Notes: generated from the letters alone by a model not told the origin. Counted from the first letter of the stretch, positions 4,938-62,983 are shown. The stretch is DNA of 64,000 nt from an uncultured Chryseobacterium sp. (GCA_964457245.1 CAYWET010000006.1:21098-85097); one strand, 5' to 3'. Numbers and translations: made by a program.

Positions 4938-5361
4938 GGCATTTCAAACTAATGTTGAATATGCAAGATAGTGGTCGATTGTCACTTAGCTTACAAATCA
5001 ACCCTTGCTGTGAACGGATAAATGCCCAAAGTTTTAAGGTTCTCGCTGTGCCGAAATAAGCAGGTTTAGTCTAATGGTGATAAAAACTCGGAATCAGAAT
5101 TTCTCGCACTTATTTGAGTTTTGGTTTTGATACTGCCAAAATTTCGTAAAAATTCAGGGTGTTATTTTTAAGCGAGACCGAGCAGGGCCTTGATACAAGT
5201 ATAAGGTAATCACAAATTCCTAGCAATGTTTTTTAAGAGGCAAACTTCTTATGCGGTGGTAGTCATCGCCCATTTGGAGTTTAGGACAATTTATGCACAG
5301 GGTGGGCAACCAGAGCCCATTCACCCTGTGGTTATAAACCCAGAAGACGGCATTAAAAAAC

Positions 5362-9999: not shown

Positions 10000-10033
10000 G
10001 AGGTTTAAATCAATTGTTGTCGTTCAGTTCAAT

Positions 10034-41910: not shown

Positions 41911-44520
41911 ATGCCGACTATTTCACGCCAGTTTTTCTTTTTGATTTTCATTCTGATTCCAACCCTTGGTTTTGGTCAGTTCGTAGATGATTTTTCGGAT
42001 GGTGATTTTACTGCCAATCCTACCTGGAGTGGCGATGCAGCCAATTTTGAAGTGGACGGAGGTCAAAAGTTGCACCTGAACGCGCCAGCAGAATCGGATA
42101 CCTCTTACTTGTCGGTTTTCAGCGAAGCGATTGATGATGCCACTTGGGAGTTTTTGGTTGAGCTGGATTTCAATCCGTCTTCAAGCAATTTGGCAAGGGT
42201 TTATCTCGTCTCAAACAACTCGAACCTTGAAGGGGCTTTGAACGGTTATTACGTTCGATTGGGTGGAGAAACCGAAGACAGAATCAGTCTTTATCGTCAG
42301 ACGGGAACTTCATCAACACAATTGATTACTTCTGCTGATGGATTGCTAAGCACAGATCCATCAGGAGCCAGGGTTCGCGTTACCCGAACAGCAAGTTCCG
42401 ATTGGGAATTAATGGCAGATACTTCGGGCGGAACAACGTTTGTTTCTATCGGAACGGTGAACGACACCACTTACGAGCAAAGTCTTTATTCGGGCGTTTG
42501 GTGCAAGTACACCAGTACACGGTCGGATAAGTTCTATTTCGATGATTTCAATGTGACAGGAAATCCGTTTGTGGATTCAGAAGCACCGACCGTTGAATCG
42601 GTAACCACCATTTCCAACACTCAGGTCGATGTTCAATTCAGCGAACCAGTTGACCAAACAACTGCGGAAACCCTCACGAATTATTTGGCAGATGGCTCGT
42701 TGGGAAATCCATCTTCCGCCCAGCGAGACGTCACGGATCAAAGCCTTGTGCATTTGACCTTCGCCACTCAGTTTACCAATGGAACGACTTACAATCTCAC
42801 CATTTCTAATGTTGAGGATCTGGCTGGAAACCCTGTCTCAACCAATACAGAACCTTTTATATATGTCATCCCATCACCAGCGGGATTCAGAGATGTGGTG
42901 ATCAATGAGTTCATGTGCGATCAAAGCCCTGTTGTTGGATTGCCTGAAGCAGAGTTTGTTGAGGTCTTCAATACCACAAATAATTTCATTGACCTTACTG
43001 GGTGGAAACTGGGAGATGCGTCTTCGTTGGGTACTGTCGGTTCGCATATTATTGGACCAGGTGAATTCGCAATTCTGACATCGACATCAAACGATTCCGC
43101 GTTCATGCCATTTTCAAATGTGGTTTTGGTGAGTTCATTTCCATCGCTAAATAACTCTGGAGACGACATCATTCTGCAAGATGCCAATGAGGTGGTAATC
43201 GATCAATTGAGCTACGATTTGAGCTGGTATCAGGATGAGGATAAGGAAGATGGTGGTTACACCTTGGAACAGATCAATCCGTTTGCGTCTTGTGTTAACG
43301 CGAATAATTGGAAAGGCTCCGATGATGTTTTAGGAGGCACACCCTCTGCACAGAATTCGGTGTTTGATGATACGCCTGATCAAATTGGGCCAGCATTGCT
43401 GAGTATTGACATTCTCGGCATACAGACCGTTCAGGTAAACATGAACGAGGCGTTGGACGCAGGATCGGTTTCAGTATTTAATTTCACGGTTGACCCAACG
43501 TTGAATGTGGTTTCGGCTTCGGCTATTGCACCTGCCAACAGTTCGTTGATTGTTTCGCTAGGAAACCCCATTGATACTGGAGTGGTTTACACGCTTACCT
43601 TTTCGGGAATTACAGATTGCGAAGGAAACCTACAGGGTTCGGATTCTGTTGGAACGTTTGTACTTCCGTTTGATGCCGATTCGGGTGATTTCGTGATAAA
43701 CGAAGTGCTGTTTAACCCGTACACAGGCGGTTCGGATTATGTAGAGTTGGTCAACGTAACCGACCGCCCTCTGAACTTGAAAGGTTGGCAATTTGCCAAC
43801 TATGACGAGGAAAATGGCATTAGCAGTCTCCGCACGATCGTAGAAAGCAATTATTCGGTTGAAGCTGGCGGGTACGTTTTAATAACGGAAGACACTTCGG
43901 ACGTGATGATGAACTACATCCAGCATGGCATCAACAATTTTATTGAGGCAGATCTTCCATCTTACAATAATGACTCAGGTACGGTGTATCTATTAAACCT
44001 GGACTCCATCGTTACTGAGGCATTTTCATATTCAGAAGAAATGCATTTCGCATTGCTTGATGACGTAAATGGTGTGTCTTTAGAACGATTGGATTTCAAC
44101 TCGCCAGTTACCTCAAAAGAAAATTGGCATTCTGCTGCTGAAACAGCAGGATTTGGAACACCAGGAGTGGAGAATTCGCAGTATTTCCCCAATCAAGGAC
44201 CAACTGGTGAGGTGAGCCTTTTTCCAGAGTTGTTTTCTCCTCGTGATGGAAATGGAGAAAATGTACTTTATGTGAACTTCAAGTTTGACTCTCCTGGTTT
44301 TGTTGCCACGGTTCGAGTGTTTGATTCCAACGGAAGATTGATCAGAACGTTGGCCACCAATGAGCTTCTTGAAAATGAAGGGTTCTTCAAATGGGATGGA
44401 AATACGGACAAAGGCGAACTCGCTCGCATTGGGATGTACATCGTCTTTTTCGAGGCATTCAGTACAAGCGGAGAAAAGTCCGTTCATAAACTTTCTGCTG
44501 CTTTGGGCGGGAGATTGTAG
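41911..44520 (+). CDS. Secreted protein with two lamin-tail (LTD) domains and a T9SS C-terminal sorting domain
   Basis: LTD-like segments VINEFM...EFVEVFNTT...LTGWKL and FVINEVLFNP...DYVELVNVT...LKGWQF. C-terminus VRVFDSNGRLIRT...GMYIVFFEA... Confidence 0.6.
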   Translation: MPTISRQFFFLIFILIPTLGFGQFVDDFSDGDFTANPTWSGDAANFEVDGGQKLHLNAPAESDTSYLSVFSEAIDDATWEFLVELDFNPSSSNLARVYLVSNNSNLEGALNGYYVRLGGETEDRISLYRQTGTSSTQLITSADGLLSTDPSGARVRVTRTASSDWELMADTSGGTTFVSIGTVNDTTYEQSLYSGVWCKYTSTRSDKFYFDDFNVTGNPFVDSEAPTVESVTTISNTQVDVQFSEPVDQTTAETLTNYLADGSLGNPSSAQRDVTDQSLVHLTFATQFTNGTTYNLTISNVEDLAGNPVSTNTEPFIYVIPSPAGFRDVVINEFMCDQSPVVGLPEAEFVEVFNTTNNFIDLTGWKLGDASSLGTVGSHIIGPGEFAILTSTSNDSAFMPFSNVVLVSSFPSLNNSGDDIILQDANEVVIDQLSYDLSWYQDEDKEDGGYTLEQINPFASCVNANNWKGSDDVLGGTPSAQNSVFDDTPDQIGPALLSIDILGIQTVQVNMNEALDAGSVSVFNFTVDPTLNVVSASAIAPANSSLIVSLGNPIDTGVVYTLTFSGITDCEGNLQGSDSVGTFVLPFDADSGDFVINEVLFNPYTGGSDYVELVNVTDRPLNLKGWQFANYDEENGISSLRTIVESNYSVEAGGYVLITEDTSDVMMNYIQHGINNFIEADLPSYNNDSGTVYLLNLDSIVTEAFSYSEEMHFALLDDVNGVSLERLDFNSPVTSKENWHSAAETAGFGTPGVENSQYFPNQGPTGEVSLFPELFSPRDGNGENVLYVNFKFDSPGFVATVRVFDSNGRLIRTLATNELLENEGFFKWDGNTDKGELARIGMYIVFFEAFSTSGEKSVHKLSAALGGRL

Positions 44521-44591
44521 GTAGTTTCCCTGTGCCGTTCCCGCATAAAGTGCGGAAGGCTGAATCCATTATTTCATTGTGTTAGATTTGG

Positions 44592-47018
44592 GTGGACAAA
44601 TCCTCACTTATGGTTGCCATCACATTCCGATACATTGTCCACATATTCTTTTTACTGATACCTACCATTGCATCGGCTCAGGTAAATGTTGATTCGCTTT
44701 TACAGATATGGAATGATGAGAGTAAGCGAGACACAGTAAGGCTTGAGGCGCTAAAAAAAGTTGCAGGAGATGGGTATCTGCACACACATCCTGATAGCGC
44801 CTATTACTATGCGAATATATTGGCCGAATTTTCTTCCAACAAAGGATACCCTAAATATGAAGCTGATGCGATAAATATTCAAGGAACCTCGTATTACCAT
44901 CGTGGCGATTTGAAAGAAGCATCGAAACATTTTGCATTGAGTTATCAAAAACGAAAGGATCTTGGAGATAAACAGGGAGTTGCTGGGTCCTTGAATAATT
45001 TTGGACTGGTTTCCTTAAGACAGGGAAATTTTGAGGAGGCAAAAGGGTATTATTTAGAAAGCCTGACCACCTACCAAGGAATTCAGGATAGTGCCGGGAT
45101 AGCTCTTTCTCTTAACAATATTGGCAGTGTCTATAGAAATCAGGGAGACTATGATAGCGCGTTGGAATACTATTTCAAGAGTTTGTTCATAAGAGAGAAG
45201 ATTAATGATTTATCAGGGGTTGGATTTACAAACAACAATATTGGACTGATTCATATGAGAGAAGGAAGTTACGATAGCGCAGTACAGTATCTTTTAGTTG
45301 GTGGAAATATTCTTAAGGAAATCAACAACCAGCGTGGATATGCCGGTACAATGATTAACCTAGCCAACGTCTATAATTATCAGGGAGAACCATCTTTAGC
45401 ACTTGAGTATTATGAACAGGCAATGAATTCTATGAATGGTATTGGAGAAAAGAAGGGGGTTGCCATATGTTTAAGTAACATGGCTTTGATATGTAGGACG
45501 CAGGGTAACTATATCCGCGCTATTAAATACATGGTGGACGGTTTGGAAATGGAACGGAAAATTGGTGATAAGCAAGGGGAAGGAATCTCCCTTAACGGCA
45601 TCGGAACACTATATCTGGAGCAAAATGACGTTGAACATAGCCTTCCTTACTTTGAAGAGGCACTTTCCATATTGGAAGGAATTGGAGATAAGGATAACAC
45701 GACAATTGCTTTGCACAATATTGGAAATGTTCACATGAAGCGCAATGACCTTGATGCGGCCAAATTGTTTTTTACCAAGGCGCTAAAAATAAATCAGCTA
45801 ATTGAAGACAAGGCAGGAATTGCAAATTCCCTGAATAGTCTTGGTAATGTTTATAGTAAGTCAAATGATTTGGAAACGGCTGAGAAACATTATGAAAAGA
45901 GTGTTTTACTTAAGCGTAGCATTGGACTTAAAGAAGGGATGATTCCGTCACTCGTTGGGATTGCATTGATAAGTAATAGAATGGGGCGATTCGAAAAGGC
46001 AGTTGTTCTTGGTTCGGAAGCACTTGAGATTGGAAACGAATTAAACATGGTGTCGGGTATTAGAGATGCAGCGGAGTCTTTGTATTATTCTTATAAGGCA
46101 ACAGGCAACTCCTCCAAGGCTCTTGAAATGCACGAACTCTTCGTTGCGATGCGGGATAGCATTATGAGTGAAGAAAACCAGCGTGCCACTATCCGCACAG
46201 AGTTTCAGCACGATATGGATATGAAAGATGCTCAGATAAAACTGCTTGATGAGGAGAGTGCACGAAAGGCTGCCGAAGCACGCGCAGAGCGAAACAAACG
46301 CCTGTTAACCTTAGGTGTTTCCGCTTCGTTAATCGTTATTCTTTTCGGAGGGGCTTACTTTGTTCAACGCAACAGAAAACAAAGGCATCAGGTTGAGATA
46401 ACCCGTGCCGAGCTGGAGAAAAAACTGGTTGAGAACGATTTTCTTCGGTCACAACTGGATCCGCATTTCATTAAGAACGCCCTGATTAACATAGACCGAC
46501 TTTTGGCCGAAGGAAAAACGGAAGAAGCGCAACGTTATAACGACCGCTTCTACAAATTAATGAACCTAACACTTGACAATGCGAGAGAACAACTGATCGG
46601 TTTGGATGAGGAATTGGAAATGATCGAACAATATCTGGCCATTGAATCCGAGCGATTGGGAAACCGCCTACAGTGGTCAGTTACCACTGCCGATGATGTG
46701 AACCGGGCAGAGGTGGAAATTCCGCCAATGATTCTTCAACCGTTAGTGGAGAATGCACTGAAACATGGTGCAGATATGAAAACTGGCAATGGTCTTGTGA
46801 AATTGGAGGTACGTGTAGAGAACGACCGAATTCTTTGCGTTGTGGAGGACAATGGCGGTGGTGTCGACCTCGAAAAAATGAAACGTTCCACCTCGCATGG
46901 GTTGCGCATTACGAGAGAGCGTCTTGAGATGTTCAGTAAATTGAATTTGGCCGAAGCAAAACTGGATCTGATAAATATTGGAACAGGCACCCAAGCTGTG
47001 GTTTCATTTAAAATCTAA
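44592..47018 (+). CDS. TPR-repeat sensor fused to a LytS/YehU-type histidine kinase (His_kinase + HATPase_c)
   Basis: Signal peptide. ~12 TPR-like units (...LNNIG.VY...GDYD.AL.YY...). One TM helix LLTLGVSASLIVILFGGAYFV. Phospho-His motif QLDPHFIKNAL. ATPase motif LVENALKHG...DNGGG. Confidence 0.8.
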   Translation: MDKSSLMVAITFRYIVHIFFLLIPTIASAQVNVDSLLQIWNDESKRDTVRLEALKKVAGDGYLHTHPDSAYYYANILAEFSSNKGYPKYEADAINIQGTSYYHRGDLKEASKHFALSYQKRKDLGDKQGVAGSLNNFGLVSLRQGNFEEAKGYYLESLTTYQGIQDSAGIALSLNNIGSVYRNQGDYDSALEYYFKSLFIREKINDLSGVGFTNNNIGLIHMREGSYDSAVQYLLVGGNILKEINNQRGYAGTMINLANVYNYQGEPSLALEYYEQAMNSMNGIGEKKGVAICLSNMALICRTQGNYIRAIKYMVDGLEMERKIGDKQGEGISLNGIGTLYLEQNDVEHSLPYFEEALSILEGIGDKDNTTIALHNIGNVHMKRNDLDAAKLFFTKALKINQLIEDKAGIANSLNSLGNVYSKSNDLETAEKHYEKSVLLKRSIGLKEGMIPSLVGIALISNRMGRFEKAVVLGSEALEIGNELNMVSGIRDAAESLYYSYKATGNSSKALEMHELFVAMRDSIMSEENQRATIRTEFQHDMDMKDAQIKLLDEESARKAAEARAERNKRLLTLGVSASLIVILFGGAYFVQRNRKQRHQVEITRAELEKKLVENDFLRSQLDPHFIKNALINIDRLLAEGKTEEAQRYNDRFYKLMNLTLDNAREQLIGLDEELEMIEQYLAIESERLGNRLQWSVTTADDVNRAEVEIPPMILQPLVENALKHGADMKTGNGLVKLEVRVENDRILCVVEDNGGGVDLEKMKRSTSHGLRITRERLEMFSKLNLAEAKLDLINIGTGTQAVVSFKI

Positions 47019-47031
47019 GCCGGAAAAGGAA

Positions 47032-48942
47032 ATGAAGAAACTGACCACCATTCTTTTTGTTTTGACTCCGATGCTTCCGTGTAGCGCCCAGATCAATTCA
47101 GATTCATTAATGATTGTGTGGAATGATAAGAGTAAGACCGATACGCTTCGTCTTATGGCAATCGAACAGCTGAGCACAGCCTTGGTGTTTTCAAATCCAG
47201 ATTCTGCCATTTCTCTTGCCCAGTTGCAGTACGAATTTGCATTAGGCAAAAGAAGGAAATGGGAGTGTAGCGCCTTGAACCTTCAAGGGCATGCTCTTGC
47301 GGTAAAAAGTCAGTATGAAGAAGCGGTGGTTCTTTACAGGAAAAGCCTTGAAGTAGGTAAGGAAATCGGTGATGAGACTGGAATGGCCAGAGCACTCAAC
47401 AATATTGGTCTGATACTCATGGATGTGGGTGATCTTCCAGAAGCTATCGAACACTTTCAGCAAAGCCTTCTGTTGAAGGAGAAAACGAATAATCCAGCAG
47501 AGGTTATTCCTGCACTGATAAACATTGCAAATCTATATGAGACCATAGGGGAACTCGATACTGCCATTAACCGTTATCGGAGGACTCTCGAAATCTGTAA
47601 TCAGGTCGGACACGTACGTGGTTCAGCTTACTGTCTTGGTAATATGGGTATGGTGTACAAGACCAAGGGTGAATTTAACATTGCAGATTCTCTGCTGAAC
47701 GAAGCACTCGTTTTAGGGAAACAGCTGAACGATCAGCAGGCAATTGCACGATGCTTTGCGGGTCTTGGAATGGTTCAGAAGGAACGCGGTGAATACATAA
47801 AAGCGCGGGATTTTTTTCTGCAATGCGTACAAATCGCTGAATCGGTAGAAGATAAAGAAGGAATCGGTGCCATCTACTACAATCTAGGCGAGGTTTACAG
47901 GCTTCAGGGAGATTTGAGTAAGGCTCAAATTTATGCGGAGAAAGCAATTGGAGTTGCTCGAAGTGTATCACATGCTGCAGATATTAGAAATGCCGCAGAA
48001 TCCCTCTACAAGATTTACAAAGCCACGAATAGCCCCTCAAAAGCACTTGTAATGCATGAATTGTACATCGCTATGCGCGACAGCATCATGAGCGAAGAGA
48101 ATCAGCGCGCCACAATCCGTACAGAGTTTCAGCACGATATGGATATGAAAGATGCGCAGATAAAACTGCTCGATGAGGAAAAGGCGCGTAAAGATGCGGA
48201 GGCAAGGGCAGAGCGTAACAAGCGTCTGTTAACGTTAGGTATTTCCGCTTCGTTGATTGTCATTCTTATTGGAGGGGCTTATTTTCTTCAACGCAATAGA
48301 AAACAGAAACATCAGGTTGAAATTACGCGTGCGGAATTAGAGAAAAAATTGGTGGAGAATGACTTTCTACGCTCTCAATTAGATCCACATTTTATCAAAA
48401 ACGCTCTTTACAATATCGACCGTCTTTTGGTGGAAGGAAAAACTGAAGAGGCGCAACGTTATAATGACCGCTTCTATAAACTGATGAACCTGACACTTGA
48501 CCATGCTAGAGAACAATTGATTGGTCTAGATGAGGAATTGGAGATGATGGAACAATATCTGTCGCTTGAGACCGATCGGCTTGGAAACCGCCTGCAGTGG
48601 TCTGTTACGGTGGCCGATGATGTTAACCCTGCCGATATAGAACTTCCACCAATGATTCTTCAACCACTGGTAGAGAATGCGCTGAAACATGGCGCGGATA
48701 TGAAAAGTGACAAGGGTGAAGTTAAACTGGAAGTTCGGGTTGAAAATGACCGAATTCTTTGCATTGTGGAGGACAACGGTGGCGGTATCGATCTGGAAAA
48801 GGTGAAACGCTCAACCTCGCATGGGTTGCGAATTACTACGGAGCGTCTTGAGATGTTCAGTAAGCTCAACCTTGCAGAAGCTAGGTTGGATATGCAAAAT
48901 ACCGGTAACGGTACACGAGCGGTGGTGTCATTTGCAGTTTAA
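47032..48942 (+). CDS. Paralogous TPR-sensor/LytS-type histidine kinase
   Basis: Same architecture. The C-terminal ~290 aa are near-identical to the upstream kinase; the TPR region is divergent. The start was taken at MKKLTTILF (the six-frame ORF begins at 46978, overlapping the upstream gene). Confidence 0.8.
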   Translation: MKKLTTILFVLTPMLPCSAQINSDSLMIVWNDKSKTDTLRLMAIEQLSTALVFSNPDSAISLAQLQYEFALGKRRKWECSALNLQGHALAVKSQYEEAVVLYRKSLEVGKEIGDETGMARALNNIGLILMDVGDLPEAIEHFQQSLLLKEKTNNPAEVIPALINIANLYETIGELDTAINRYRRTLEICNQVGHVRGSAYCLGNMGMVYKTKGEFNIADSLLNEALVLGKQLNDQQAIARCFAGLGMVQKERGEYIKARDFFLQCVQIAESVEDKEGIGAIYYNLGEVYRLQGDLSKAQIYAEKAIGVARSVSHAADIRNAAESLYKIYKATNSPSKALVMHELYIAMRDSIMSEENQRATIRTEFQHDMDMKDAQIKLLDEEKARKDAEARAERNKRLLTLGISASLIVILIGGAYFLQRNRKQKHQVEITRAELEKKLVENDFLRSQLDPHFIKNALYNIDRLLVEGKTEEAQRYNDRFYKLMNLTLDHAREQLIGLDEELEMMEQYLSLETDRLGNRLQWSVTVADDVNPADIELPPMILQPLVENALKHGADMKSDKGEVKLEVRVENDRILCIVEDNGGGIDLEKVKRSTSHGLRITTERLEMFSKLNLAEARLDMQNTGNGTRAVVSFAV

Positions 48943-48955
48943 GTAGTTTCGAAGA

Positions 48956-49705
48956 ATGATTCGCGCCATCATTATAGAAGACATCCAAGACCATAGGGAA
49001 TTGCTGAAAGAGCGCCTCGAGGATCATGATGATGTAACAGTTGTGGGCGAATTCGTGAATGCTGACAAAGGGCTTGTTGGAATTAGGCAACATAAACCTG
49101 ATCTGATCTTTCTTGATGTGGAAATGCCGTCTGGAATGAATGGATTGGAGATGCTTGAACAGATTCCCACCGATGATCGTGATTTCGGACTGATTTTTAC
49201 CACCATGCACGAGAAGTATGCGCGTAGGGCGATTGACATGGCATGTTTAGATTACCTAGACAAGCCAATTGTGGCTGAAAAGTTAGCCGAGGCTCTTAGA
49301 CGATTCAGAGAATCGGATAAGGAATCTCTGACCAAGCGCAACGGTATATTGGGCAAGGAGAACATGCTGGCAATTGCCAACATCCAAAAGGGGAAACGGT
49401 ACGAAACAATTGTTGATGCTCGAAACATCATATACTGCAAGGCAGACGGGAATTATACCGAATTCTATCTTAAAGATGGCCGCTTTTTATCCGCAAGCAA
49501 GGGCATCGCACATTACACTAAGTTGCTTGAATCATATGGAATGCTAAAGGTGCATCGGTCTTACCTGATAAATCTGAATCATGTCGATTCAATTGCCCAA
49601 GATGAAGTTATTATGAGAATGGAGGCACACCCGGAAAGTGTTAAGCGTTCCGTGTCTGTTTCCCGTGCCTATTCGCAGATTCTTCAGGCCCGCTTGTTGA
49701 GGTAA
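48956..49705 (+). CDS. LytTR-family two-component response regulator (receiver + LytTR DNA-binding domain)
   Basis: Receiver with acidic pocket IIIEDIQD and phospho-Asp context LIFLDVEMP. C-terminal LytTR pattern (...YCKADGNYTEFYLKDG...HRSYLINL...). Confidence 0.85.
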   Translation: MIRAIIIEDIQDHRELLKERLEDHDDVTVVGEFVNADKGLVGIRQHKPDLIFLDVEMPSGMNGLEMLEQIPTDDRDFGLIFTTMHEKYARRAIDMACLDYLDKPIVAEKLAEALRRFRESDKESLTKRNGILGKENMLAIANIQKGKRYETIVDARNIIYCKADGNYTEFYLKDGRFLSASKGIAHYTKLLESYGMLKVHRSYLINLNHVDSIAQDEVIMRMEAHPESVKRSVSVSRAYSQILQARLLR

Positions 49706-49954
49706 GTACCCTTCTGCTTTCTGACCAGTACCGCCATTTGCATAAGCGGTATTCTCCTGATTTTCCATTCGTACAGAGAATCCTACCATTCGACAGGAAA
49801 TGATGTCCATTCATACATCTTGATCTTCCTGTGCTCACTTCTCAAATACGTTTGCTCCTGTAATCGAAAACAAAAACATGAGCAAAGTTACCGGTCATAA
49901 AGTTCAAACCACCTCTTGTCAATTGAATGGCACAGTTCGGTTTGAACAAGGGTA

Positions 49955-50368
49955 ATGGACACTCGAAATAAAGAATTTAACAAACTGAATAAGATGAAAA
50001 ATCACCCTAAAACCATAGCAGTATTAGAACTCCTGCATGTGCTTGCCGAAGATGGGATACACCGTATGAGTTTGAACCAGATCACCTGTCTCAACTCATC
50101 AGGAGCTTACACTCACATTCATTACCTGAATGGGAAAAAAGTAGAGGTCGGCAAAAACCTGAGAAGGTTTGAAGAGGCATTGGAGCCGTACCAATTTTTC
50201 AGGGTGCACAAAAGTCACGTGGTGAACATGGAGCGTATAGAACGCTACCGTGCAACCAAAAGTGGAGGCACAGTGGAGCTTTCGGATGGCAGAACCCTAC
50301 CAGTGGCACGCTCCAGAAAATCAGCATTTCTCAAGGCATTCAAAGAACTGGCAACAGTAACCATATAG
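49955..50368 (+). CDS. Stand-alone LytTR DNA-binding domain protein (no receiver)
   Basis: 137 aa. LytTR pattern ...YTHIHYLNGKKVEV...FRVHKSHVVNMERI.... The start may be the internal Met at 49994. Confidence 0.7.
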   Translation: MDTRNKEFNKLNKMKNHPKTIAVLELLHVLAEDGIHRMSLNQITCLNSSGAYTHIHYLNGKKVEVGKNLRRFEEALEPYQFFRVHKSHVVNMERIERYRATKSGGTVELSDGRTLPVARSRKSAFLKAFKELATVTI

Positions 50369-50402
50369 AAAACAATCATTCAACAATCAAAAAATCAAGA
50401 TC

Positions 50403-51815
50403 ATGAAAAAGACAGCACTTATTATTCTACTCCTTGCAGCGGCTAACGTCTTTGCCTTACCGCAGGAACTCCAACAGGCCATAACGGAAATCAAGAACGA
50501 CCTGCACGAAATACGCTCAGTACGATATACCGTTAATCAGAGCATCCTACCTGTTTCAGGTTCAATAGTTGACTTTCAACTTAATAACACGGATAGTAAA
50601 GGTCGTGTTTCTTCGACCACATATCGTGTTGACCTAGCAGACATTGACCCTCTACTTCTTACAAGTGGTGTGGAACGAGACATGATGAAAGTGGAGGTTC
50701 ATGCAAAGGGAAAACAACGTTTCATTACCGAACTGAAGGGCGGTGAGGTGACGCGTTACACAGACCGTTTTAAGCTTGATGTACGCGATATGGATAACGC
50801 ACGACAACTTATGGATGCTTTTAAGAAAGGCATTGCTGTTGCTGAAAGTATGGACACGTATAAAGGTCAGTTCGGCTCGTTGCGAGAGGTGTTACTAGAG
50901 CTTTCGTCCTTGGTAAAACCATTGGGCAATACGGTTTCTGTACAGAAAATACTCGTTTCTGAAGACAGAGCAGAGAAACTGCAGCACGTAATCCGCAGAG
51001 GAGATGGAGTCGTTCTCAAGCATGAGTTCAACCTAAAAGATATGAACGCTACCACCGTAGATTACGTGGCCAGCGGCCGCAACTTGAGTATTAAATTGAA
51101 TACGTACGGGGGAAGCAAAGCGGTAAAAAGATACCAGAATGATCTGGCAAAAGACTTCGTACCCAATTTTACGGTAGCGGCAGAAACCGTTGAGCAAGCT
51201 AAAAAGATAAAAGCCCTTTTTGAACTGGCAATCAATGCTGCCAATGGCAATGCTCTGAAGAAAACACATTCTGCTCCGTCACGGTCATCTGCTCCACCAA
51301 GTGGATCTTCTGCCAGCAGAAAAACATCTTCCGCACAAACTCCATCTCAGGATAATGGTGGATTTCCAAAGGTGGAGTTGACCAAAGACCCTGAAAGTGG
51401 AAAATATGCTTGGGCTGGCGTATATCACTTTCCAGGACAATCTCTAGAGGAGCTTTACCGAGCGGCAGAGGCTTCCATACCAACTAACATGGTTATTTCA
51501 AAAACGGACAACCAAATCGTTTTTCAACGTATGGGAGGAAACCGAACCGCCCTGAGATTGGGAGGAGACGCCTATATCTCCTTCACCATAAAAGTGAGCT
51601 TCAAAGAAGGAAAGATACGAATGGAAGAGACCGACTTCTTCTATGATAACCGCGCTTGGGGATTCTCGGCACCACAAACTCTTGAAACCATGAATGCCAA
51701 GAAACTGAACAAAATCGTAGGAGACATTAACGAACGACTCACGAAGGGCAACAACACTATGATGGATGGCCTAAAGACCAAGTTGAGGCTCACTTCCCAA
51801 GAAGAAGATTGGTAA
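50403..51815 (+). CDS. Secreted hypothetical protein, 470 aa
   Basis: Signal peptide MKKTALIILLLAAANVFA. Ser/Pro-rich linker in the middle. No motif recognised. Confidence 0.6.
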   Translation: MKKTALIILLLAAANVFALPQELQQAITEIKNDLHEIRSVRYTVNQSILPVSGSIVDFQLNNTDSKGRVSSTTYRVDLADIDPLLLTSGVERDMMKVEVHAKGKQRFITELKGGEVTRYTDRFKLDVRDMDNARQLMDAFKKGIAVAESMDTYKGQFGSLREVLLELSSLVKPLGNTVSVQKILVSEDRAEKLQHVIRRGDGVVLKHEFNLKDMNATTVDYVASGRNLSIKLNTYGGSKAVKRYQNDLAKDFVPNFTVAAETVEQAKKIKALFELAINAANGNALKKTHSAPSRSSAPPSGSSASRKTSSAQTPSQDNGGFPKVELTKDPESGKYAWAGVYHFPGQSLEELYRAAEASIPTNMVISKTDNQIVFQRMGGNRTALRLGGDAYISFTIKVSFKEGKIRMEETDFFYDNRAWGFSAPQTLETMNAKKLNKIVGDINERLTKGNNTMMDGLKTKLRLTSQEEDW

Positions 51816-51882
51816 GAGTGAACCCTAAACCCGAAAGGGATTGAAAGCAAAAACAGTTCAATAACCATAAATATCAATAATC

Positions 51883-52077
51883 ATGAAAACAAAACTCGTT
51901 TTACTAATTGCCACAGCTGGACTTATGACATTCAGCTCTTGCAAGAAATGCTACACGTGTCAATTTGATGGCAGTGCGTCCACCGAGGAGATATGCAAGC
52001 CAAATAATATGAACCAGAAAGGCTGGCGAGAATATGTGAAGAACTACGAAGAGTGGTATGATGCAGATTGTAAGTGA
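51883..52077 (+). CDS. Small Cys-rich lipoprotein/peptide, 64 aa (mature part roughly 45 aa with 4-5 Cys)
   Basis: Signal peptide with lipobox-like ...LMTFSSC. Mature region CKKCYTCQ...C...C. Placed between operon genes with short spacers. Confidence 0.45.
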   Translation: MKTKLVLLIATAGLMTFSSCKKCYTCQFDGSASTEEICKPNNMNQKGWREYVKNYEEWYDADCK

Positions 52078-52157
52078 TCATTCTTTAGCCCTGTCAACGT
52101 TTTGAACGCTGGCAGGGTTTAATAATCTTTACAACACAACCCTTAAGATAAAAGACC

Positions 52158-53630
52158 ATGAAAACATTAGTAATTCAAAATACCGTTTCGCTGTTCATTG
52201 CAGCTACTTTGTCTATCAGTATTGCAGTGGCCAATCAGATAAACATGCAAGATGGAGTAACTGTAACAAGTTGTTCTGGAACAATTTACGATCATGCAGG
52301 ACCAAACGGAAGTATCCAATCGTATAGCAGCCATAGGGTTTTAACCATACGGTCTGCCGAGCCAAATAAAGCGGTTCAACTGGTCTTTGAAGAACTAAGG
52401 TTTGGATATAGCAACGCATTCAACCTGAAAATATATGATGGTGGTAACACTCAATCCCCGTTGCTGGTAGAGTTTACCACCGGATGGGACAACAGCCCCT
52501 ACATCGGCACGGGGATCATGGCCAATTCGGGAGAAATGACCCTTGAATTCACCTCAATATCGGTCTATCCTGCGCACGAAACGGCAGATGGTTGGAAGGC
52601 AAGTTGGAACTGTGTGGAAAAAAGTTACAACATGCAGAACGGAAGCGTGACCGCATGCGCTGGAGCACTGCACGATCCCGGAGGCCCCAGTGGTTCGAGT
52701 TCCGAGAATGAAACCTACATTTTTACTATAAACCCAGAAAGCTCCGGACAAGCAATTGTAATGGACATTCTATTCGCGAATCTATGGGTGAGTGATCTTA
52801 CTCTGTTCGATGGCTTAAACACAACCGCACCTGTTATATGGTCTGGAACTGGAATAATTACGGACATTCCGGCCCAAATAGCGCCTTCTGGAGCGATGAC
52901 CGTTGAACTGGTTGTCTCTGGTTCTTCAGCTCCGAATTTTCTTGGGGTTTGGCATTGCATAGATCAATCGGGCATTGAAATGTCAGACGGTACCACCGCA
53001 AGCTGTTTTGGCACTATCTATGACAGCGGAGGTCTTAATGGAGATTATTCTAATAATGAAGACCATACTTATGTAGTTTCAACCAACGAAGTGAACACGG
53101 TGATAGATTTCAGATTGTTTTCATTTGGCTCCGAATTTGGGCATGATACTCTTTGGGTGTATGATGGAGCAAGCGCTGACCCAGCGAACGTTTTAATTAC
53201 GGGTTCGGGTTATCTCAATGGGTCATCAATTTTTGTTAGTTCCAATTCCAATGCGATGACTTTCAGATTCAAGTCTGATGGTACCGGGACAGAGCGTGGT
53301 TTTATTGGAAACTGGTCATGTCGCGATACAATTTCAGCATGGTCGGTTAGCACTGGAGTTGAGGACCATCCTTATTCACTGGAATCTCCTATCATCTTTC
53401 CAAATCCATCAAGCGGACGGATGAACATGGTCATACCTTGGTCAACCCAGGATGTCGAGATACGAGTGTTCAATGCTATAGGTCAGATAATGCATCAAGA
53501 GCGGGTCGGGAATCTGACGAAAGGTGTTTCCAGAACACTGAACCTTTCAGATTTGATGGATGGCATCTATTGGTGTAATGTCAGCAGTAAAGAAAAAACC
53601 GCTTGCCAGAGAATTGTGATTCGGCATTGA
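52158..53630 (+). CDS. Secreted T9SS cargo protein with three CUB-like repeats and a C-terminal sorting domain
   Basis: Signal peptide. Thrice-repeated C-x-G-x-[IL]-x-D-x-G-G-x-x-G-x-Y modules. CTD ...FPNPSSGRMNMVIP...VEIRVFNAIGQ...GIYWCNV.... Confidence 0.65.
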   Translation: MKTLVIQNTVSLFIAATLSISIAVANQINMQDGVTVTSCSGTIYDHAGPNGSIQSYSSHRVLTIRSAEPNKAVQLVFEELRFGYSNAFNLKIYDGGNTQSPLLVEFTTGWDNSPYIGTGIMANSGEMTLEFTSISVYPAHETADGWKASWNCVEKSYNMQNGSVTACAGALHDPGGPSGSSSENETYIFTINPESSGQAIVMDILFANLWVSDLTLFDGLNTTAPVIWSGTGIITDIPAQIAPSGAMTVELVVSGSSAPNFLGVWHCIDQSGIEMSDGTTASCFGTIYDSGGLNGDYSNNEDHTYVVSTNEVNTVIDFRLFSFGSEFGHDTLWVYDGASADPANVLITGSGYLNGSSIFVSSNSNAMTFRFKSDGTGTERGFIGNWSCRDTISAWSVSTGVEDHPYSLESPIIFPNPSSGRMNMVIPWSTQDVEIRVFNAIGQIMHQERVGNLTKGVSRTLNLSDLMDGIYWCNVSSKEKTACQRIVIRH

Positions 53631-53807
53631 CCTCATTCGAAAACGTACTGGTTAACCCCGTATCCAAGATTCGTTGGTTAAGGAATGAGGCCGGGTGTTG
53701 TTCGCGTACATTTTACTACTTTTCGACTAAACTGTTAATTTGGCCGACCAATGAGGTGCTTTTTGAGCTATAGCACAAAAGGGCGATTATACCAAGAAAC
53801 CAATACG

Positions 53808-54968
53808 ATGAAAATAAATTCAATCATAGCAGGACTCATGTTGTTCTGGGTCACAGCCGCACAGGCTCAGTTTGGAGTGGGGGCAAGAGTAGGTGTTTCT
53901 ATGAGTACCATGGTTGGGGTCCGTGGTGCCGATCTGATTCCAAACCCAGGTTTGGTAACGGGCGTTTCCGGAGAGTTCCGATTGGTGGATAATCAGTCGC
54001 TTTCGTTCTACCTACAACCAGAATTCGCATTAGAGCAAAAGGGCTATGCCACCAAATTTACTTCGGGTAGTTTCAGGTCCGAAACCCAATATAATTTTGA
54101 TTATGCCTCTTTACCTGTTGCAGCCAAACTGATTTTTGGAAGCGGCAAATTCAAAGGGGGAATAAATGTGGGAGTTGCTCCTGCCTTGCTTATTGGAAGG
54201 TATGCACAGTACAAGAACAGCGATGGTGATAGGAGTAGGACTGTAATAAGCAGGAGTAGCGTAAAGGTTTTTGACATCAATGCCTTTATTGGCGGAGTGA
54301 TGGAGTATGCGCTTGGTCCTGGGGCCCTTTTTGCTGACCTCAGGTATACGCAGGGCTTTGTAGACCCATTTTCCAGCTACTTGGCAAAGCCTCACCTTGG
54401 TTCCAGTTACCTGAATGCATCGCCATCGTTTTCGGTGGGTTACGTTTTCAGAATAGGTGGAGGTAAGACATCTTCGGTTCCTTCCGGAAGTTCGTATTCA
54501 GATCCGTCTGATTCGGGTTTTACCGACATTGAGAACACCCAAGAAGAACCTGAAACCGTTTGGGAAGATGAAAGCGAACCTGTTGAAACCCGCCCCTCAA
54601 CGATAGATGAAGAAGTTAGCAAATCAAGTTCGCAGGAGCTAAGGCCTTCGCCCAAGCCGCGTGAGAACACGGCAGCGGTCAGTTCAGATTTTGAGGAAAT
54701 GATCGAACTCAACAAACACTTTGACGTGATTGCTGATGTACATGCATCAGACACCGATAAAGAGATCAGTAAAACTGAGATTCTTAGCAGGTTCAAACAT
54801 GGAGACGTTCTGGTAAAGATTGAGATTGATAAGGTGGTCGTTGACTATTTCGGCATCAACGAGTTTCTTGGTGCTATCCGTCTCAATCATTCCCGGTATA
54901 AAATTGCCGACCGTATTAAGGATGAAAACGGCATGATTAGCGAAATAACCATGCGTAAGATCGGATAA
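53808..54968 (+). CDS. Outer-membrane beta-barrel protein fused to a C-terminal domain of unknown function
   Basis: Signal peptide MKINSIIAGLMLFWVTAAQAQ. Porin-family-like beta pattern over ~220 aa. Ser-rich linker. C-terminal ~130-aa soluble domain. The six-frame ORF starts at 53751. Confidence 0.55.
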   Translation: MKINSIIAGLMLFWVTAAQAQFGVGARVGVSMSTMVGVRGADLIPNPGLVTGVSGEFRLVDNQSLSFYLQPEFALEQKGYATKFTSGSFRSETQYNFDYASLPVAAKLIFGSGKFKGGINVGVAPALLIGRYAQYKNSDGDRSRTVISRSSVKVFDINAFIGGVMEYALGPGALFADLRYTQGFVDPFSSYLAKPHLGSSYLNASPSFSVGYVFRIGGGKTSSVPSGSSYSDPSDSGFTDIENTQEEPETVWEDESEPVETRPSTIDEEVSKSSSQELRPSPKPRENTAAVSSDFEEMIELNKHFDVIADVHASDTDKEISKTEILSRFKHGDVLVKIEIDKVVVDYFGINEFLGAIRLNHSRYKIADRIKDENGMISEITMRKIG

Positions 54969-54981
54969 GCTTTTTAAGGAT

Positions 54982-55557
54982 ATGATGAGATCAATAGTAT
55001 TTGTTGTAGGGGTTCTTCTTTTGGGTTCGGAATTGAAAGCTCAGGACCTGAATCTTACTGAGCAAGAGCGTGCCGCATTTGCGCAACAGGCACTTGAGAA
55101 AGCGCGGGAATTGAGTATGTACATAGACAAACTCTGCAACAAGAGCACACCATCCTCAATTCAAGTAGAGGCCATGGATTTGGCTTTAGACCTTTTTAGA
55201 GACCACGAACGAATAGTTGAAGTTTCGAAAAAGAACTCTGATGACCTACTTTACCCCACTATTGACCGTTACCTCAATCGGTTAGTGAACTATAACTACA
55301 CCAAAGTGGAGGTGACATGGTACGATGTTTCCTATGCTTCTGACCTGAAACCAGGAACCGATGGCCGTTACTACGGAACCATAACCGTGTTTCAAAAATT
55401 TGTGGGTTATGTTGGGGATGGCATTGTAGCATACGAAGACGTTACGCAGAAAAACATTGAGGTGATACTGGAACCGCGCATCAAACGTGTTGGAGATCAA
55501 GAATTCGAGGCTCTCATTGTTCTTCTTGGTGACATTCAGGTAATGCAGACCGAATGA
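54982..55557 (+). CDS. Secreted hypothetical protein, 191 aa
   Basis: Signal peptide. The ORF stop overlaps the next start (ATGA). Confidence 0.55.
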   Translation: MMRSIVFVVGVLLLGSELKAQDLNLTEQERAAFAQQALEKARELSMYIDKLCNKSTPSSIQVEAMDLALDLFRDHERIVEVSKKNSDDLLYPTIDRYLNRLVNYNYTKVEVTWYDVSYASDLKPGTDGRYYGTITVFQKFVGYVGDGIVAYEDVTQKNIEVILEPRIKRVGDQEFEALIVLLGDIQVMQTE

Positions 55558-56408
55558 GCAAGAAACTACTCTTACCTATTCTAGTTATTGTTTTCCAACT
55601 CCCATTAAGTGTGTTAGGGCAGTCTGTTGGTAAGCAGGTAGTGGAGCACGAGTTGAAATTATTGGTCAAGAACTACGATGAGTTCATGGCGCGGTTCAAC
55701 TTTACCATGGATCCTTTCGGTAACCCCATTAAAGACACAGCCCATGTTTACTTGGAAAACGTAGCAGGGATTCAAAAAATTGATCGAAAACTCTCAGTGT
55801 CGTTCCTTATTGATGCGGAACTTTGCGAACGACATCCAGATTTGTGCGAACGTTTTGTGGATGATGTTACTGACAAGGAAAATCCGTATTTGCTCAATTT
55901 CCATGACCCGAATTGGTACTGCGTGCGGCCCGCAACGGTCAGGTTCAACGGGAGTGAACAAAGCCTTAGTCTAACCATGCAGGTGGAAGTTCATGACGGG
56001 CGACAGTCAAAATGGGTAATCTGTGGTGTAGATGCTCCCTTTCTGCCTGCGATAAAAACGGAGCACGACAAAGATCGACTCATTGCACCAGATAGCAACA
56101 GCAGCGGTTTTGTGGCGCTAAGACGTGCTTTTGAAGATGTTGAACACTTTGATGAATACCTGCCGAGGAGTTTTGGAACTGATGGACTGACTCGTTTGGC
56201 CACGGCTTGCAAAAACGGGCAGCTGGAATATGTCAGTGCTAAAGGGCAACAGGAGTATCATCTGCTTCAAATACCGGGCTGGGTTGTAATGATTCAATAT
56301 TTCAAACGGAAAGATGGTAATCGAGGGTGGCTTATTTCTGAACTGCACCCGTTAACGGATGAGGAAAAAGAAATCTATTTGAAGGAATATCTCAACATCG
56401 GTCAATGA
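55554..56408 (+). CDS. Secreted hypothetical protein, 284 aa
   Basis: Signal peptide MSKKLLLPILVIVFQLPLSVLGQ. 4-bp overlaps with both neighbours. Confidence 0.55.
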   Translation: MSKKLLLPILVIVFQLPLSVLGQSVGKQVVEHELKLLVKNYDEFMARFNFTMDPFGNPIKDTAHVYLENVAGIQKIDRKLSVSFLIDAELCERHPDLCERFVDDVTDKENPYLLNFHDPNWYCVRPATVRFNGSEQSLSLTMQVEVHDGRQSKWVICGVDAPFLPAIKTEHDKDRLIAPDSNSSGFVALRRAFEDVEHFDEYLPRSFGTDGLTRLATACKNGQLEYVSAKGQQEYHLLQIPGWVVMIQYFKRKDGNRGWLISELHPLTDEEKEIYLKEYLNIGQ

Positions 56409-58699: not shown

Positions 58700-58717
58700 C
58701 AACTAAAAACAGATCAC

Positions 58718-60214: not shown

Positions 60215-60231
60215 ATTAAAAGAAGCAGATT

Positions 60232-60771
60232 ATGTCAACGCAGACTGTAGTCGTAGTCAATCAAAAGAGCATGGCCGTTGGCCTACTGCTCACTTTTTTC
60301 TTTGGGCCTTTAGGTATGTTGTATTCAACAGTTTTAGGTGCAGTGATCATGTTCTTCGTTAACATATTGGCATTCGTTTTTACGGCAGGTATCGGCCTCT
60401 TGCTTACTTGGCCCATTGGCCTGATTTGGTCAGGAGTTGCCATCAGCAGTCATAATAGTAATCTTGTTTCTACCGGTGCCGCCACTCCACACCAAAAAAA
60501 CCAAGAAGCACAGGCCCCAAGTGCGCCCGTTACAGAGCGACCCGCTGCAACAGATCAACCACCAGTTGAAAAGACAACTCCCGCCAAAGCTTACCAAACT
60601 GTACCCAAGGCTTCGGGCTGTGCCAAGTGTGGAACCGAGATGGAAGCGGATGACAAATTCTGTTTCAACTGCGGCACCGAAAGAAAACAACAGCAGTTTT
60701 GTGCAAATTGTGGAAACACAATAACGGCCAATAACAAGTTCTGCAGTGGTTGTGGCGCCAAGGTAGCTTAA
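60232..60771 (+). CDS. TM2-domain membrane protein with a C-terminal double zinc ribbon
   Basis: Two TM helices with a GPLGMLYS motif (TM2-like). Two CxxC...CxxC pairs (CAKCG...CFNCG; CANCG...CSGCG). Confidence 0.55.
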   Translation: MSTQTVVVVNQKSMAVGLLLTFFFGPLGMLYSTVLGAVIMFFVNILAFVFTAGIGLLLTWPIGLIWSGVAISSHNSNLVSTGAATPHQKNQEAQAPSAPVTERPAATDQPPVEKTTPAKAYQTVPKASGCAKCGTEMEADDKFCFNCGTERKQQQFCANCGNTITANNKFCSGCGAKVA

Positions 60772-60802
60772 CCCCTAATATGAACCTTAAATACCCGTTA
60801 AC

Positions 60803-61546: not shown

Positions 61547-61551
61547 ACACC

Positions 61552-62838: not shown

Positions 62839-62983
62839 CAAACATTGGCGCAAGCGCTCCTAACGAAAACTTGGTACAGAGTAGGAGCAAAACCAAAGTC
62901 AATTCAACTTTAAGTGATGATGCCTTTGGCTGTAAAACATTCGTATTGTACTAAAACCGTTGCTAGCGAGGAGGCATCAAAGG

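Follow-up and report, generated by a model that had tools for sequence, protein, structure and literature searches.

LytS, YehU (BtsS), and YpdA-type sensor kinases, as in the LytSR and BtsSR systems, combine a PF06580 His_kinase domain with HATPase_c, and in these kinases input sensing is the task of polytopic membrane domains (5TM-LytS) or of other modules. Many-to-one pathways are also established, i.e. KinA–E acting on Spo0F in Bacillus and LuxN, LuxQ, and CqsS acting on LuxU in Vibrio. The core of FimS is of the classical HisKA type, and its target is a regulator of the OmpR type. The periplasmic domain of FimS from Porphyromonas gingivalis (FimS-FimR system), 338 aa in length, is a cluster of eight TPR motifs flanked by two TM helices, and single substitutions in these motifs raise or lower signalling, although the ligand is unknown (PMC11053733).

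The window analysed here is a 64,000-nt stretch of DNA from a Flavobacteriales bacterium. Two neighbouring ORFs, K1 and K2, are located on one strand within 44592..48942, where an earlier note on this DNA had placed them. Their probable start codons are the ATGs at 44610 and 47032, and the products of 802 and 636 aa are identical to the database proteins P0121 and P0243, respectively. The gaps between the K1 stop and the K2 start and between the K2 stop and the response regulator gene are 13 nt each, and a search for terminator-like sites between these genes on the + strand found none. K1 and K2 are almost certainly co-transcribed, as judged from the sequence. The features of the locus, in window coordinates, are as follows.

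44610..47018, + strand: K1, TPR-LytS-type sensor histidine kinase, 802 aa (ORF open from GTG 44592; Pfam)
44610..44678, + strand: K1 putative signal peptide, MVAITFRYIVHIFFLLIPTIASA then Q (N-terminal hydrophobic segment; predicted cleavage site)
44679..44861, + strand: K1 conserved N-terminal cap, QVNVDSLLQIWND..DT.RL.A...PDSA (motif common to K1, K2, L045, and L001)
44862..46061, + strand: K1 variable TPR array, 10 exact 40-residue units (unit register)
46056..47015, + strand: K1 conserved core, first direct-repeat copy (C-terminal cap hairpin, stalk helix, TM, DHp, and ATPase domain)
46302..46364, + strand: K1 TM
46464..46466, + strand: K1 DHp His619
47032..48942, + strand: K2, paralogue of K1; TPR-LytS-type sensor histidine kinase, 636 aa (ORF open from TTG 46978)
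47266..47985, + strand: K2 variable TPR array, 6 exact 40-residue units (unit register)
47980..48939, + strand: K2 conserved core, second direct-repeat copy (cap, 65-residue stalk helix, TM, DHp, and ATPase domain)
48226..48288, + strand: K2 TM
48388..48390, + strand: K2 DHp His453
48956..49705, + strand: response regulator, REC + LytTR (Pfam Response_reg, 76.1 bits; LytTR, 45.7 bits)
49994..50368, + strand: LytTR DNA-binding protein, stand-alone, no receiver domain (Pfam LytTR, 66.6 bits; ORF open from 49955)
50403..51815, + strand: 470-aa protein with an N-terminal hydrophobic leader, conserved module member (orthologues in L045 and L048; no Pfam or NCBIfam match)
44526..62845, no strand: 18.3-kb segment starting with K1 (boundaries from alignment A2)

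In both kinases, Pfam identified TPR_12 and related families (TPR_12, 214 and 182 bits in K1 and K2, respectively), His_kinase (PF06580; 59.9 and 58.3 bits), and HATPase_c (30.7 and 33.5 bits), the last two above their cut-offs of 25.2 and 26.4 bits, respectively. By these domain criteria, K1 and K2 are PF06580-type (LytS/YehU-like) sensor histidine kinases. Neither kinase has lost its H, N, or G box, and H453, N457, E548-N549, D581, G583, and G585 (K2 numbering) are invariant in K1, K2, and four relatives (alignment A3). The only solved sequence relative is GanS (PDB 6swj/6swk; E = 1e-14), which is also matched structurally by the kinase part of the K2 model. No 5TM-LytS Pfam match was found in K1 or K2, and neither qualifies as a polytopic membrane sensor. 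Each has instead two hydrophobic segments, one at the N terminus and an internal one with QRNRKQ after it. The residue at +1 after the leader is Gln in all homologues, in accordance with the Q-rule described for Bacteroidetes substrates of signal peptidase I (PMC5837995). This leader and the positive charges past the single TM helix would place the TPR array outside the cytoplasmic membrane.

The AlphaFold2 model of K2 (mean pLDDT, 79.7; TPR part, 85–96) contains paired helices every 40 residues and a long helix at residues 335–400; the sensor is thus made up of tandem TPR hairpins forming a superhelix. In a Foldseek comparison with solved structures, the TPR domains of LGN/Pins were the best matches (target-normalised TM-score, 0.81–0.84), and kinesin light chain (KLC) and Rap gave TM-scores of 0.6–0.8; LGN/Pins, KLC, and Rap/RRNPP proteins share the 40-residue unit type with K2. 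Unlike the sensors of LytS and BtsS, that of K1 and K2 is therefore a predicted periplasmic TPR solenoid with a single-pass anchor. In this respect, they resemble FimS, likewise a Bacteroidota sensor kinase with a TPR periplasmic domain and the best NCBIfam match for their TPR parts, but they differ from it in that their leader is predicted to be cleaved, only one TM helix is present, the core is of the PF06580 type, and the probable partner is a LytTR regulator. Assignment of K1 and K2 to the FimS equivalog (NF053520) was rejected, as the scores (155.6 and 98.6, respectively) were below the 600-bit cut-off and involved TPR residues only. All NCBIfam equivalog scores were sub-threshold, the best matches of the regulator being BtsR and LytR.

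The last 320 aa of K1 and K2 are identical at 275 positions (85.9%), and BLASTP returned a single ungapped block. Over the last 290 aa, identity is 87.9%, so the ~90% of the earlier note was right, if slightly generous. In sliding windows, identity jumps from ~30% to >80% at residue ~488 of K1 and ~334 of K2 (ORF numbering). The stalk, TM, and DHp regions are about 93% identical, with few and mostly conservative differences; those at H+7 (I/Y) and H+14 (A/V) past the phospho-accepting His could tune partner or dimer specificity. In contrast, the N-terminal halves show 29% identity with large gaps, and the TPR arrays overall are 24–29% identical, which is the floor set by the repeat consensus. 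No unit-to-unit diagonal was detected between the arrays (mean identity of 24%, versus 20–27% among units inside one protein), but a faint collinearity of units is present (p = 0.018), and the N-terminal caps are identical at 17 of 30 residues in the best window. The similar kinase cores and fully diversified TPR sensors described in the earlier note are thus borne out, rather than a uniform identity of ~50% throughout; 'near-identical' is apt for the core proteins but not for their DNA, which is 78% identical.

Comparisons of K1 and K2 with the kinases of the related loci L001, L045, and L048 show the same pattern, with cores 69–82% and arrays 26–32% identical, and no homologue departs from the residue at which conserved sequence switches to variable, indicating that the sharp boundary reflects constraint and not a fresh breakpoint. 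Arrays of 6, 7, at least 8, and 10 units occur among the homologues. K1 and K2 are mutual best matches in an exhaustive search of 1.84 billion representative proteins and sisters in the core tree (94% bootstrap). A comparison of single- and double-kinase loci, suggested earlier, revealed a single kinase before the regulator at L001 and L045; the contig of L048, the third related locus, begins inside the kinase gene. These data support the view that K1 and K2 are true paralogues derived from a duplication. Retention of the N-terminal cap beyond the array, together with the faint unit collinearity, favours duplication of the whole gene followed by divergence in place. However, simple clock-like divergence fits poorly, because the K1–K2 arrays are at the floor despite cores (86%) closer than those of L045 and L001, which are 78% identical with arrays at 39%. 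Downstream of the kinases, the response regulator is 94% identical (aa) to that of L048, the stand-alone LytTR protein follows the regulator in L045 and L048 as well (98% aa identity to L048), and orthologues of the 470-aa protein come after it (53% in L045 and 85% in L048). Arrays are at the consensus floor even between genomes with a 94%-identical neighbouring regulator.

The two core sequences form a direct repeat (46056..47015 and 47980..48939) of 960 nt each, with a spacing of 1924 and 78% nucleotide identity; the repeat noted earlier does exist, but is longer than the ~0.85 kb given and far from exact. The cores show a pS of 0.65–0.67, a dS of about 1.5–1.7, and a dN of 0.07–0.09, with an omega (dN/dS) of about 0.05. 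Copy 2 differs from copy 1 with a dN of 0.087 at a dS of about 1.7. Synonymous sites are nearly, but not fully, saturated, since 141 of the 264 sites with identical amino acids have identical codons, against 95 expected (z = 6). As the K1–K2 dS exceeds the host dS to the nearest sampled relative (asd, 0.15; LTD, 0.61; RR, 0.56), the duplication claimed in the earlier note stands but was not recent, and the conservation of the core is attributable to purifying selection, not youth. The history does not fit a clean tree. Differences specific to one lineage are clustered, with runs of 9–10 informative sites (p = 0.0004 and 0.001), and the patchy similarity hints at past gene conversion. The L048 kinase has saturated synonymous sites relative to both K1 and K2 despite its 94%-identical neighbouring regulator, indicating that kinase genes have been converted or replaced at some time. 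Upstream of the stable regulator module, this appears to have occurred piecemeal.

Taken together, the locus is best explained, with a probability of about 0.6, by old duplicates with a constrained core, diversified periplasmic arrays, and many-to-one signalling. One ancestral kinase gave rise to K1 and K2 via an old duplication; strong purifying selection has since held the stalk, TM, and kinase half, whereas in the TPR arrays gain or loss of units, together with drift or diversification, would have left nothing in common but the repeat consensus. Each protein comprises a predicted cleaved signal peptide, the N-terminal cap, a predicted periplasmic superhelix of exact 40-residue TPRs, and a conserved last hairpin, the second helix of which continues as a ~65-residue stalk, followed by one TM and the LytS/YehU-type His_kinase + HATPase_c. 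The two arrays would bind different ligands in the periplasm, and each ligand would probably be a peptide or a segment of a protein lying in the concave groove, as it does in the TPR domains of LGN, KLC, or Rap. This ligand type is suggested by analogy only, and those proteins, unlike K1 and K2, are cytoplasmic and not kinase-fused, with sequence identities of 13–28%. The signal would be transmitted through the shared stalk and TM, and both kinases would phosphorylate the REC-LytTR protein.

The regulator at 48956..49705 has the layout of a LytTR partner (REC + LytTR, encoded beside a kinase) and carries the sole receiver domain detected by Pfam in the 18.3-kb segment. As only one receiver domain is nearby, signalling of both kinases to one LytTR regulator is the best reading, and such convergence, also suggested in the earlier note, is plausible given the position of this gene directly downstream and the retained H, N, and G boxes. 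The short intergenic gaps and the small number of differences in the stalk, TM, and DHp are circumstantial points in the same direction, but a further partner regulator may be encoded elsewhere in the genome, beyond the 64 kb covered. K1 and K2 thus probably signal to this single regulator, with phosphotransfer deduced from adjacency only. The arrangement resembles the KinA–E and Lux pathways, in which several kinases with different sensor domains have a single downstream receiver; the kinases of those pathways are dispersed and anciently diverged throughout, whereas K1 and K2 are in tandem, have transmitter halves that are 86% identical, and would converge by inference. As an example of sensor diversification, the pair is neat but ordinary.

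Other histories of the pair were considered. The earlier note proposed, as one option, a recent duplication, with the direct repeat being a deletion/fusion hotspot that could give chimeric sensors. The repeat is present, K1, K2, and the L048 kinase resemble one another in patches, which points to exchanges between cores at some time, and short-read assemblies break inside the 35-nt exact match. However, the longest exact runs are 35, 23, and 17 nt, only one of them >30 nt; the minimal RecA-substrate size in E. coli is ~23–27 bp, so one or two segments are of this size and recombination would find little to work on in the present repeat. Two additional sequencing runs gave contigs that match the window at 100% until they end, at 44960 and at 46226 inside K1, without rearrangement in the parts covered. 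A low-divergence repeat with long exact matches was rejected on these run lengths and on the 78% identity, pS, and dS values, the last of which places the duplication before the divergence of this genome and its nearest sampled relative; the proposal of a recent duplication with a hotspot is very improbable. A K1/K2 split long predating the sampled lineages, followed by concerted evolution in which gene conversion repeatedly homogenised the 3' halves up to the cap but never reached the arrays, and by loss of one copy in single-kinase relatives, would account for a K1–K2 synonymous divergence above that of the host between cores that are nevertheless sisters, for the significant runs of lineage-specific sites, for local pS minima of 0.51–0.56, near host-level values, and for arrays at the floor beside close cores. 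Yet neither array is nearer to those of L045, L001, or L048 (all 26–32%), so no orthologue of the K1 or K2 array is seen elsewhere, the boundary recurs in orthologous comparisons, where conversion cannot act, and the present sequence contains no low-dS tract; we regard this history as rather unlikely.

Replacement of the TPR array through recombination with further TPR genes, whether from this genome or a different one, the chassis (N-terminal cap, and cap through kinase) being kept, is unlikely, although several observations point towards it; in that case, the K1 and K2 arrays would not be diverged versions of one original. The best non-self database matches of the K1 array are 35–41% identical, including arrays with SpoIIE, adenylate cyclase, or HisKA outputs, versus 29% to K2; the cap motif flanking the arrays is common to many such proteins; the array of the L048 kinase, which lies beside a 94%-identical regulator, is unrelated and comprises at least 8 units; and the GC3 of the K1 array is 0.37, compared with 0.42–0.49 elsewhere in the segment. 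Against this, identities of 35–41% are still near the consensus, arrays of exact 40-residue periodicity are likely to resemble one another through that consensus, no high-identity donor was found among 5.8 billion proteins, and the unit collinearity of K1 and K2, though weak, is nominally significant. The two kinases may also not act in parallel, but form heterodimers with two ectodomains, or one may act mainly as a phosphatase or otherwise regulate their shared pathway negatively. Their dimerisation elements are about 93% identical with mostly conservative changes, the genes are adjacent and likely co-translated off one transcript, and paralogues that stem from a duplicated homomer commonly form heteromers (PMC6711710); all catalytic motifs are kept in both kinases, however, and long retention (dS about 1.7) without dimer-insulating changes fits harmless cross-dimerisation equally well, making non-parallel action similarly unlikely. 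More doubtful still is a broader reading of the family as a conserved chassis (N-terminal cap, cap-stalk-TM, and kinase) with a rapidly turning-over TPR cassette, in which kinases are replaced or converted piecemeal upstream of a stable regulator. If arrays were exchanged, or selected to diversify against variable peptide or protein ligands, and K1/K2 heterodimers formed via the almost identical stalk and DHp, the system would be a combinatorial, evolvable periplasmic receptor.

Regardless of how the pair arose, the segment containing it (44526..62845) is absent from the eight closest lineages sampled. It shows no GC anomaly, and a search for signs of a mobile island found no tRNA, no integrase (Pfam), and no flanking repeat >8 nt. 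The LTD gene (41911..44520 in the window) is directly followed by phoH (62984..63970 in the window) in L049, L051, L052, L054/L055, L056, and L057, and a single PqiA gene lies between them in L058. The same junction is occupied by other genes in L058 and L059 and by a kinase-regulator pair in L001.

The interval comprises two adjoining ORFs on the forward strand, K1 and K2, which are separated by 13 nt from the K1 stop to the K2 start and are followed by the gene for a response regulator, the start of which lies 13 nt past the K2 stop:

44610..47018, + strand: K1, TPR-LytS-type sensor histidine kinase of 802 aa (likeliest start, ATG at 44610), identical to database protein P0121
47032..48942, + strand: K2, TPR-LytS-type sensor histidine kinase of 636 aa (likeliest start, ATG at 47032), identical to database protein P0243
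48956..49705, + strand: REC-LytTR response regulator

Many TPR matches, PF06580 (His_kinase), and HATPase_c were each identified over the Pfam cut-off in both kinases, which also retain intact H, N, and G boxes. The N-terminal leaders end in ...A|Q, and the Gln at position +1, which is present in all homologues, is in line with the Q-rule described for signal peptidase I substrates of Bacteroidetes (PMC5837995). QRNRKQ follows the single internal TM helix of each protein. A sigma-70 promoter scan yielded fewer hits than the shuffled control and the promoter consensus of Bacteroidota is different; thus, the scan carries no weight for the operon structure.

In BLASTP, the C-terminal halves of K1 and K2 formed a gap-free alignment with identities of 85.9% in the last 320 aa and 87.9% in the last 290 aa, whereas the N-terminal halves share 29% identity. 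Sliding windows placed the change from ~30 to >80% identity at residue ~488 of K1 and ~334 of K2 (ORF numbering). The 45 differences between the 320-aa cores are mostly conservative, and the stalk contains only two of them and the TM helix only three. The TPR arrays consist of units of exactly 40 residues, none of which contains an indel, ten in K1 and six in K2, and each array is closed by a conserved 'cap' hairpin. No diagonal was observed in the matrix comparing the K1 and K2 units one by one (mean identity of 24%, compared with 20-27% among units within one protein), and the common ground of the arrays is limited to the repeat consensus A.aLNNIGlVY..G....A..Y..kSL.i....gD..G; the correspondence of units is ambiguous and their synonymous sites are saturated. 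The near-identical kinase cores and divergent TPR sensor domains described in the earlier note were thus confirmed, and the reading as diversification of the sensors stands.

The same note considered the duplication to be possibly recent and the direct DNA repeat to be a deletion/fusion hotspot, neither of which was borne out. The repeat (960 nt; 46056..47015 and 47980..48939) exhibits a DNA identity of just 78%, and the longest stretches of exact match measure 35, 23, and 17 nt. The Nei-Gojobori method gave a pS of 0.65-0.67, a dS of about 1.5-1.7, a dN of 0.07-0.09, and an omega of about 0.05, indicating that the similarity of the two proteins reflects purifying selection and not youth. Of the 264 positions at which K1 and K2 share the amino acid, 141 also share the codon, compared with 95 expected from codon usage (z = 6), and the synonymous sites are therefore not wholly randomised. 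Between the window and L051, the locus of the host's nearest sampled relative, the dS is 0.15 for asd, 0.61 for the LTD gene adjoining K1, and 0.57 for a 542-aa gene, all smaller than the K1-K2 value. Either the paralogues predate the split between the host and L051, or one of the kinases was derived from a diverged lineage. The strong core identity noticed by eye thus stands, but the low omega and high dS speak against a young pair; more generally, near-identity of the protein segments encoded by tandem genes implies neither recent duplication nor an active substrate for recombination. The only exact match of >30 nt between K1 and K2 is the 35-nt run (46197..46231 and 48121..48155). Two Logan contigs match the window with 100% identity, and one of them (sequencing run SRR15635858) ends at 46226, within this exact match, as would be expected if both copies are present in that sequencing run; SRR15635848 is a further run of the same strain. 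Short-read assemblies are evidently interrupted by this repeat.

When 1.84 billion representatives were searched exhaustively by HMMER with the K2 core, K2 ranked first, followed by K1 (86%), P0366 (74%), P0001 (69%), and others at 53% or below. Close relatives of K1 and K2 are therefore rare in this search, yet relatives of the host are plentiful. At E <= 1e-30, 1,406 representatives were recovered, and, judged from sequence, the architecture itself is widespread; we know of no experimental characterisation of it. With the K1 core as query, a word-index protein search recovered one close relative and missed K1 and K2 although both are in the collection, and negatives from this method do not equal absence. 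A scan of GTDB species genomes yielded distant proteins only, most of which share just the cap motif, and gave no comparison of single- and double-kinase loci. Such a comparison was provided by two related loci, each with one kinase, compared with two in the window. L001, which is syntenic with the window, contains asd, the LTD gene, one kinase (P0001, frameshifted in a 2x assembly), and a regulator. L045 contains one kinase (P0366), a small nucleotidyltransferase ORF, a regulator, a solo LytTR protein, and a 466-aa protein. The small ORF (L045 2231..2560) lies between the kinase and the regulator and encodes a 109-aa MNT-like nucleotidyltransferase of a type typical of toxin-antitoxin pairs. 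A third locus, L048, was found via the 90% cluster of the regulator, and its contig begins inside a kinase (X).

The core identities are 86% for K1-K2, 82% for X-K2, 78% for X-K1, 78% for L045-L001, and 69-75% between groups, whereas those of the leader plus array are 29, 26, 29, 39, and 28-32%, respectively. In a neighbour-joining tree of the cores, K1 and K2 are joined with 94% bootstrap support and X is placed next (72%), which upholds the duplication as such.

In all comparisons, orthologous and paralogous, the switch from floor-level to high identity occurs at the same site, namely the start of the cap hairpin, and an N-terminal cap (Q[VI]N.DSL...WND...DT.RL.A......PDSA) is conserved beyond the other end of the array in all members. 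The array is thus an internal module between constrained segments, and the sharp boundary fits differential constraint better than a breakpoint specific to K1 and K2. A monotone-matching test detected faint collinearity of units between K1 and K2 (p = 0.018) and clearer collinearity between L045 and L001 (p = 0.009). One observation does not fit: the cores of K1 and K2 are more similar than those of L045 and L001, yet the identity between the K1 and K2 arrays is at floor level, compared with 39% between the arrays of L045 and L001. This suggests that the arrays changed faster after the duplication than in single-copy lineages, that the cores were partly homogenised, or that an array was replaced. 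As for replacement, the K1 leader and array (44610..46055) have a GC3 of 0.37, compared with 0.41-0.49 in all other genes of the segment and 0.46 in the K1 core, and this low value may hint at a separate origin of the K1 array. The database protein search for a donor gave a best identity of 41%, which leaves import of the array as a candidate origin. The cap motif KAL[EV]MHEL..[VI]AMRDSIM (46077..46160 and 48001..48084; also in loci L003-L044) is located just outside the membrane and is common to many Bacteroidota TPR membrane proteins, which carry SpoIIE phosphatase, class-3 cyclase, or HisKA kinase domains among their cytoplasmic outputs. Modules of TPR, cap, and TM helix with these other outputs are common in Bacteroidota, and the cap looks like a family-wide element for signal transmission; accession PF28559 in precomputed domain lists may correspond to it.

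Among K1, K2, and X, sites at which one differs from the other two are clustered, with runs of 10 and 9 that were reached in 0.04 and 0.1% of shuffles, respectively, and the local pS in these patches falls to about 0.5. Between the window and L048, the kinase cores share a nucleotide identity of ~75%; the value steps up to ~91% at the start of the regulator, stays there until ~51300, and then decreases again (54-77% at the 3' end of a 470-aa gene). The conserved block (48956..51300 in the window and 1992..~4340 in L048) covers the regulator, the solo LytTR gene, and the 5' two-thirds of the 470-aa gene, with dS values of 0.56, 0.30, and 0.88 for the respective genes, whereas the synonymous divergence between K2 and X is saturated (pS of 0.81). 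This identity step and dS contrast indicate that the kinase genes and the regulator module have separate histories, for which gene conversion among several paralogues, differential loss, and replacement are candidate causes. Use of the L048 regulator block as a simple clock for the kinases was rejected because of this mosaic structure. The arrays and kinase genes appear to turn over much faster than the regulator module. The solo LytTR gene (49994..50368) follows the regulator and encodes a DNA-binding protein that lacks a receiver domain. A counterpart occurs in L045, and no other gene of the module is as well conserved (98% amino acid identity to L048).

In the AlphaFold2 model of K2 (mean pLDDT of 79.7; 85-96 in the TPR part), a helical hairpin occurs every 40 residues, and the second helix of the last hairpin extends 65 residues to the membrane, followed by the DHp helices and an alpha/beta ATPase domain. 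Among solved structures, the ectodomain is best matched by the peptide-binding TPR domains of LGN/Pins (target-normalised TM-score of 0.81-0.84), kinesin light chain, and Rap receptors, and the kinase part matches GanS. We infer that each array would bind its own periplasmic ligand and that the signal would then run via the common stalk and TM helix to one LytTR regulator, on which both kinases probably converge. Heterodimers of K1 and K2 may also form, since the dimerisation elements are almost identical. The transmitter is of the PF06580/LytTR class, as in LytSR and BtsSR, but the polytopic sensor of those kinases is absent. The closest studied sensor is Porphyromonas gingivalis FimS, the periplasmic eight-TPR domain of which controls signalling and for which no ligand is known (PMC11053733). 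K1 and K2 match the FimS model on TPR units only, far under the cut-off, and differ in kinase core and partner type; thus, they are not members of the FimS family. At face value, this is a routine case of duplicated kinases that hold the transmitter and alter the sensor. It is also a clean natural experiment, in which one operon carries two sensors with different TPR ectodomains and few, mostly conservative differences in the stalk, TM helix, and DHp, making the pair convenient for chimera and phosphotransfer work on periplasmic TPR signalling.

A search with the adjoining LTD protein identified many host relatives (57-89% identity), annotated as Flavobacteriales MAGs. The LTD gene is directly followed by phoH in L049, L051, L052, L054/L055, L056, and L057, and one PqiA gene separates the two in L058. 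The 18.3-kb region at ~44526..62845, of which K1 and K2 are the first genes, is therefore an insertion relative to the eight closest sampled lineages. It also encodes the regulator, the solo LytTR protein, the 470-aa protein, a T9SS-sorted CUB protein, outer-membrane barrel proteins, three zinc-ribbon proteins, a TonB_C protein, past which the segment ends on the right, and unknowns. A check of this segment for island hallmarks, namely a tRNA, an integrase, flanking repeats, and a GC shift, was negative throughout. Different genes occupy the LTD/phoH junction in L059 and a kinase-regulator pair is present there in the distant L001, indicating that the junction is a variable spot. L051 and L048 were derived from one sample, ERZ25074695, and show an equal level of divergence, and in their organism the kinase-regulator module probably lies at a different genomic position. 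In the relatives, the LTD-phoH interval encodes a small Cys-rich protein of 59 aa that begins with a hydrophobic leader (L049 12680..12859), and the window retains just a truncated remnant of it at the right edge of the segment (~62850..62935). Elsewhere in the window, three tandem ORFs of ~1540 aa (330..4937, 5362..9999, and 10034..14659) occupy 330..14659 on the reverse strand, and a Pfam match, C-terminal Peptidase_S74 (chaperone of endosialidase), was obtained in the first only.
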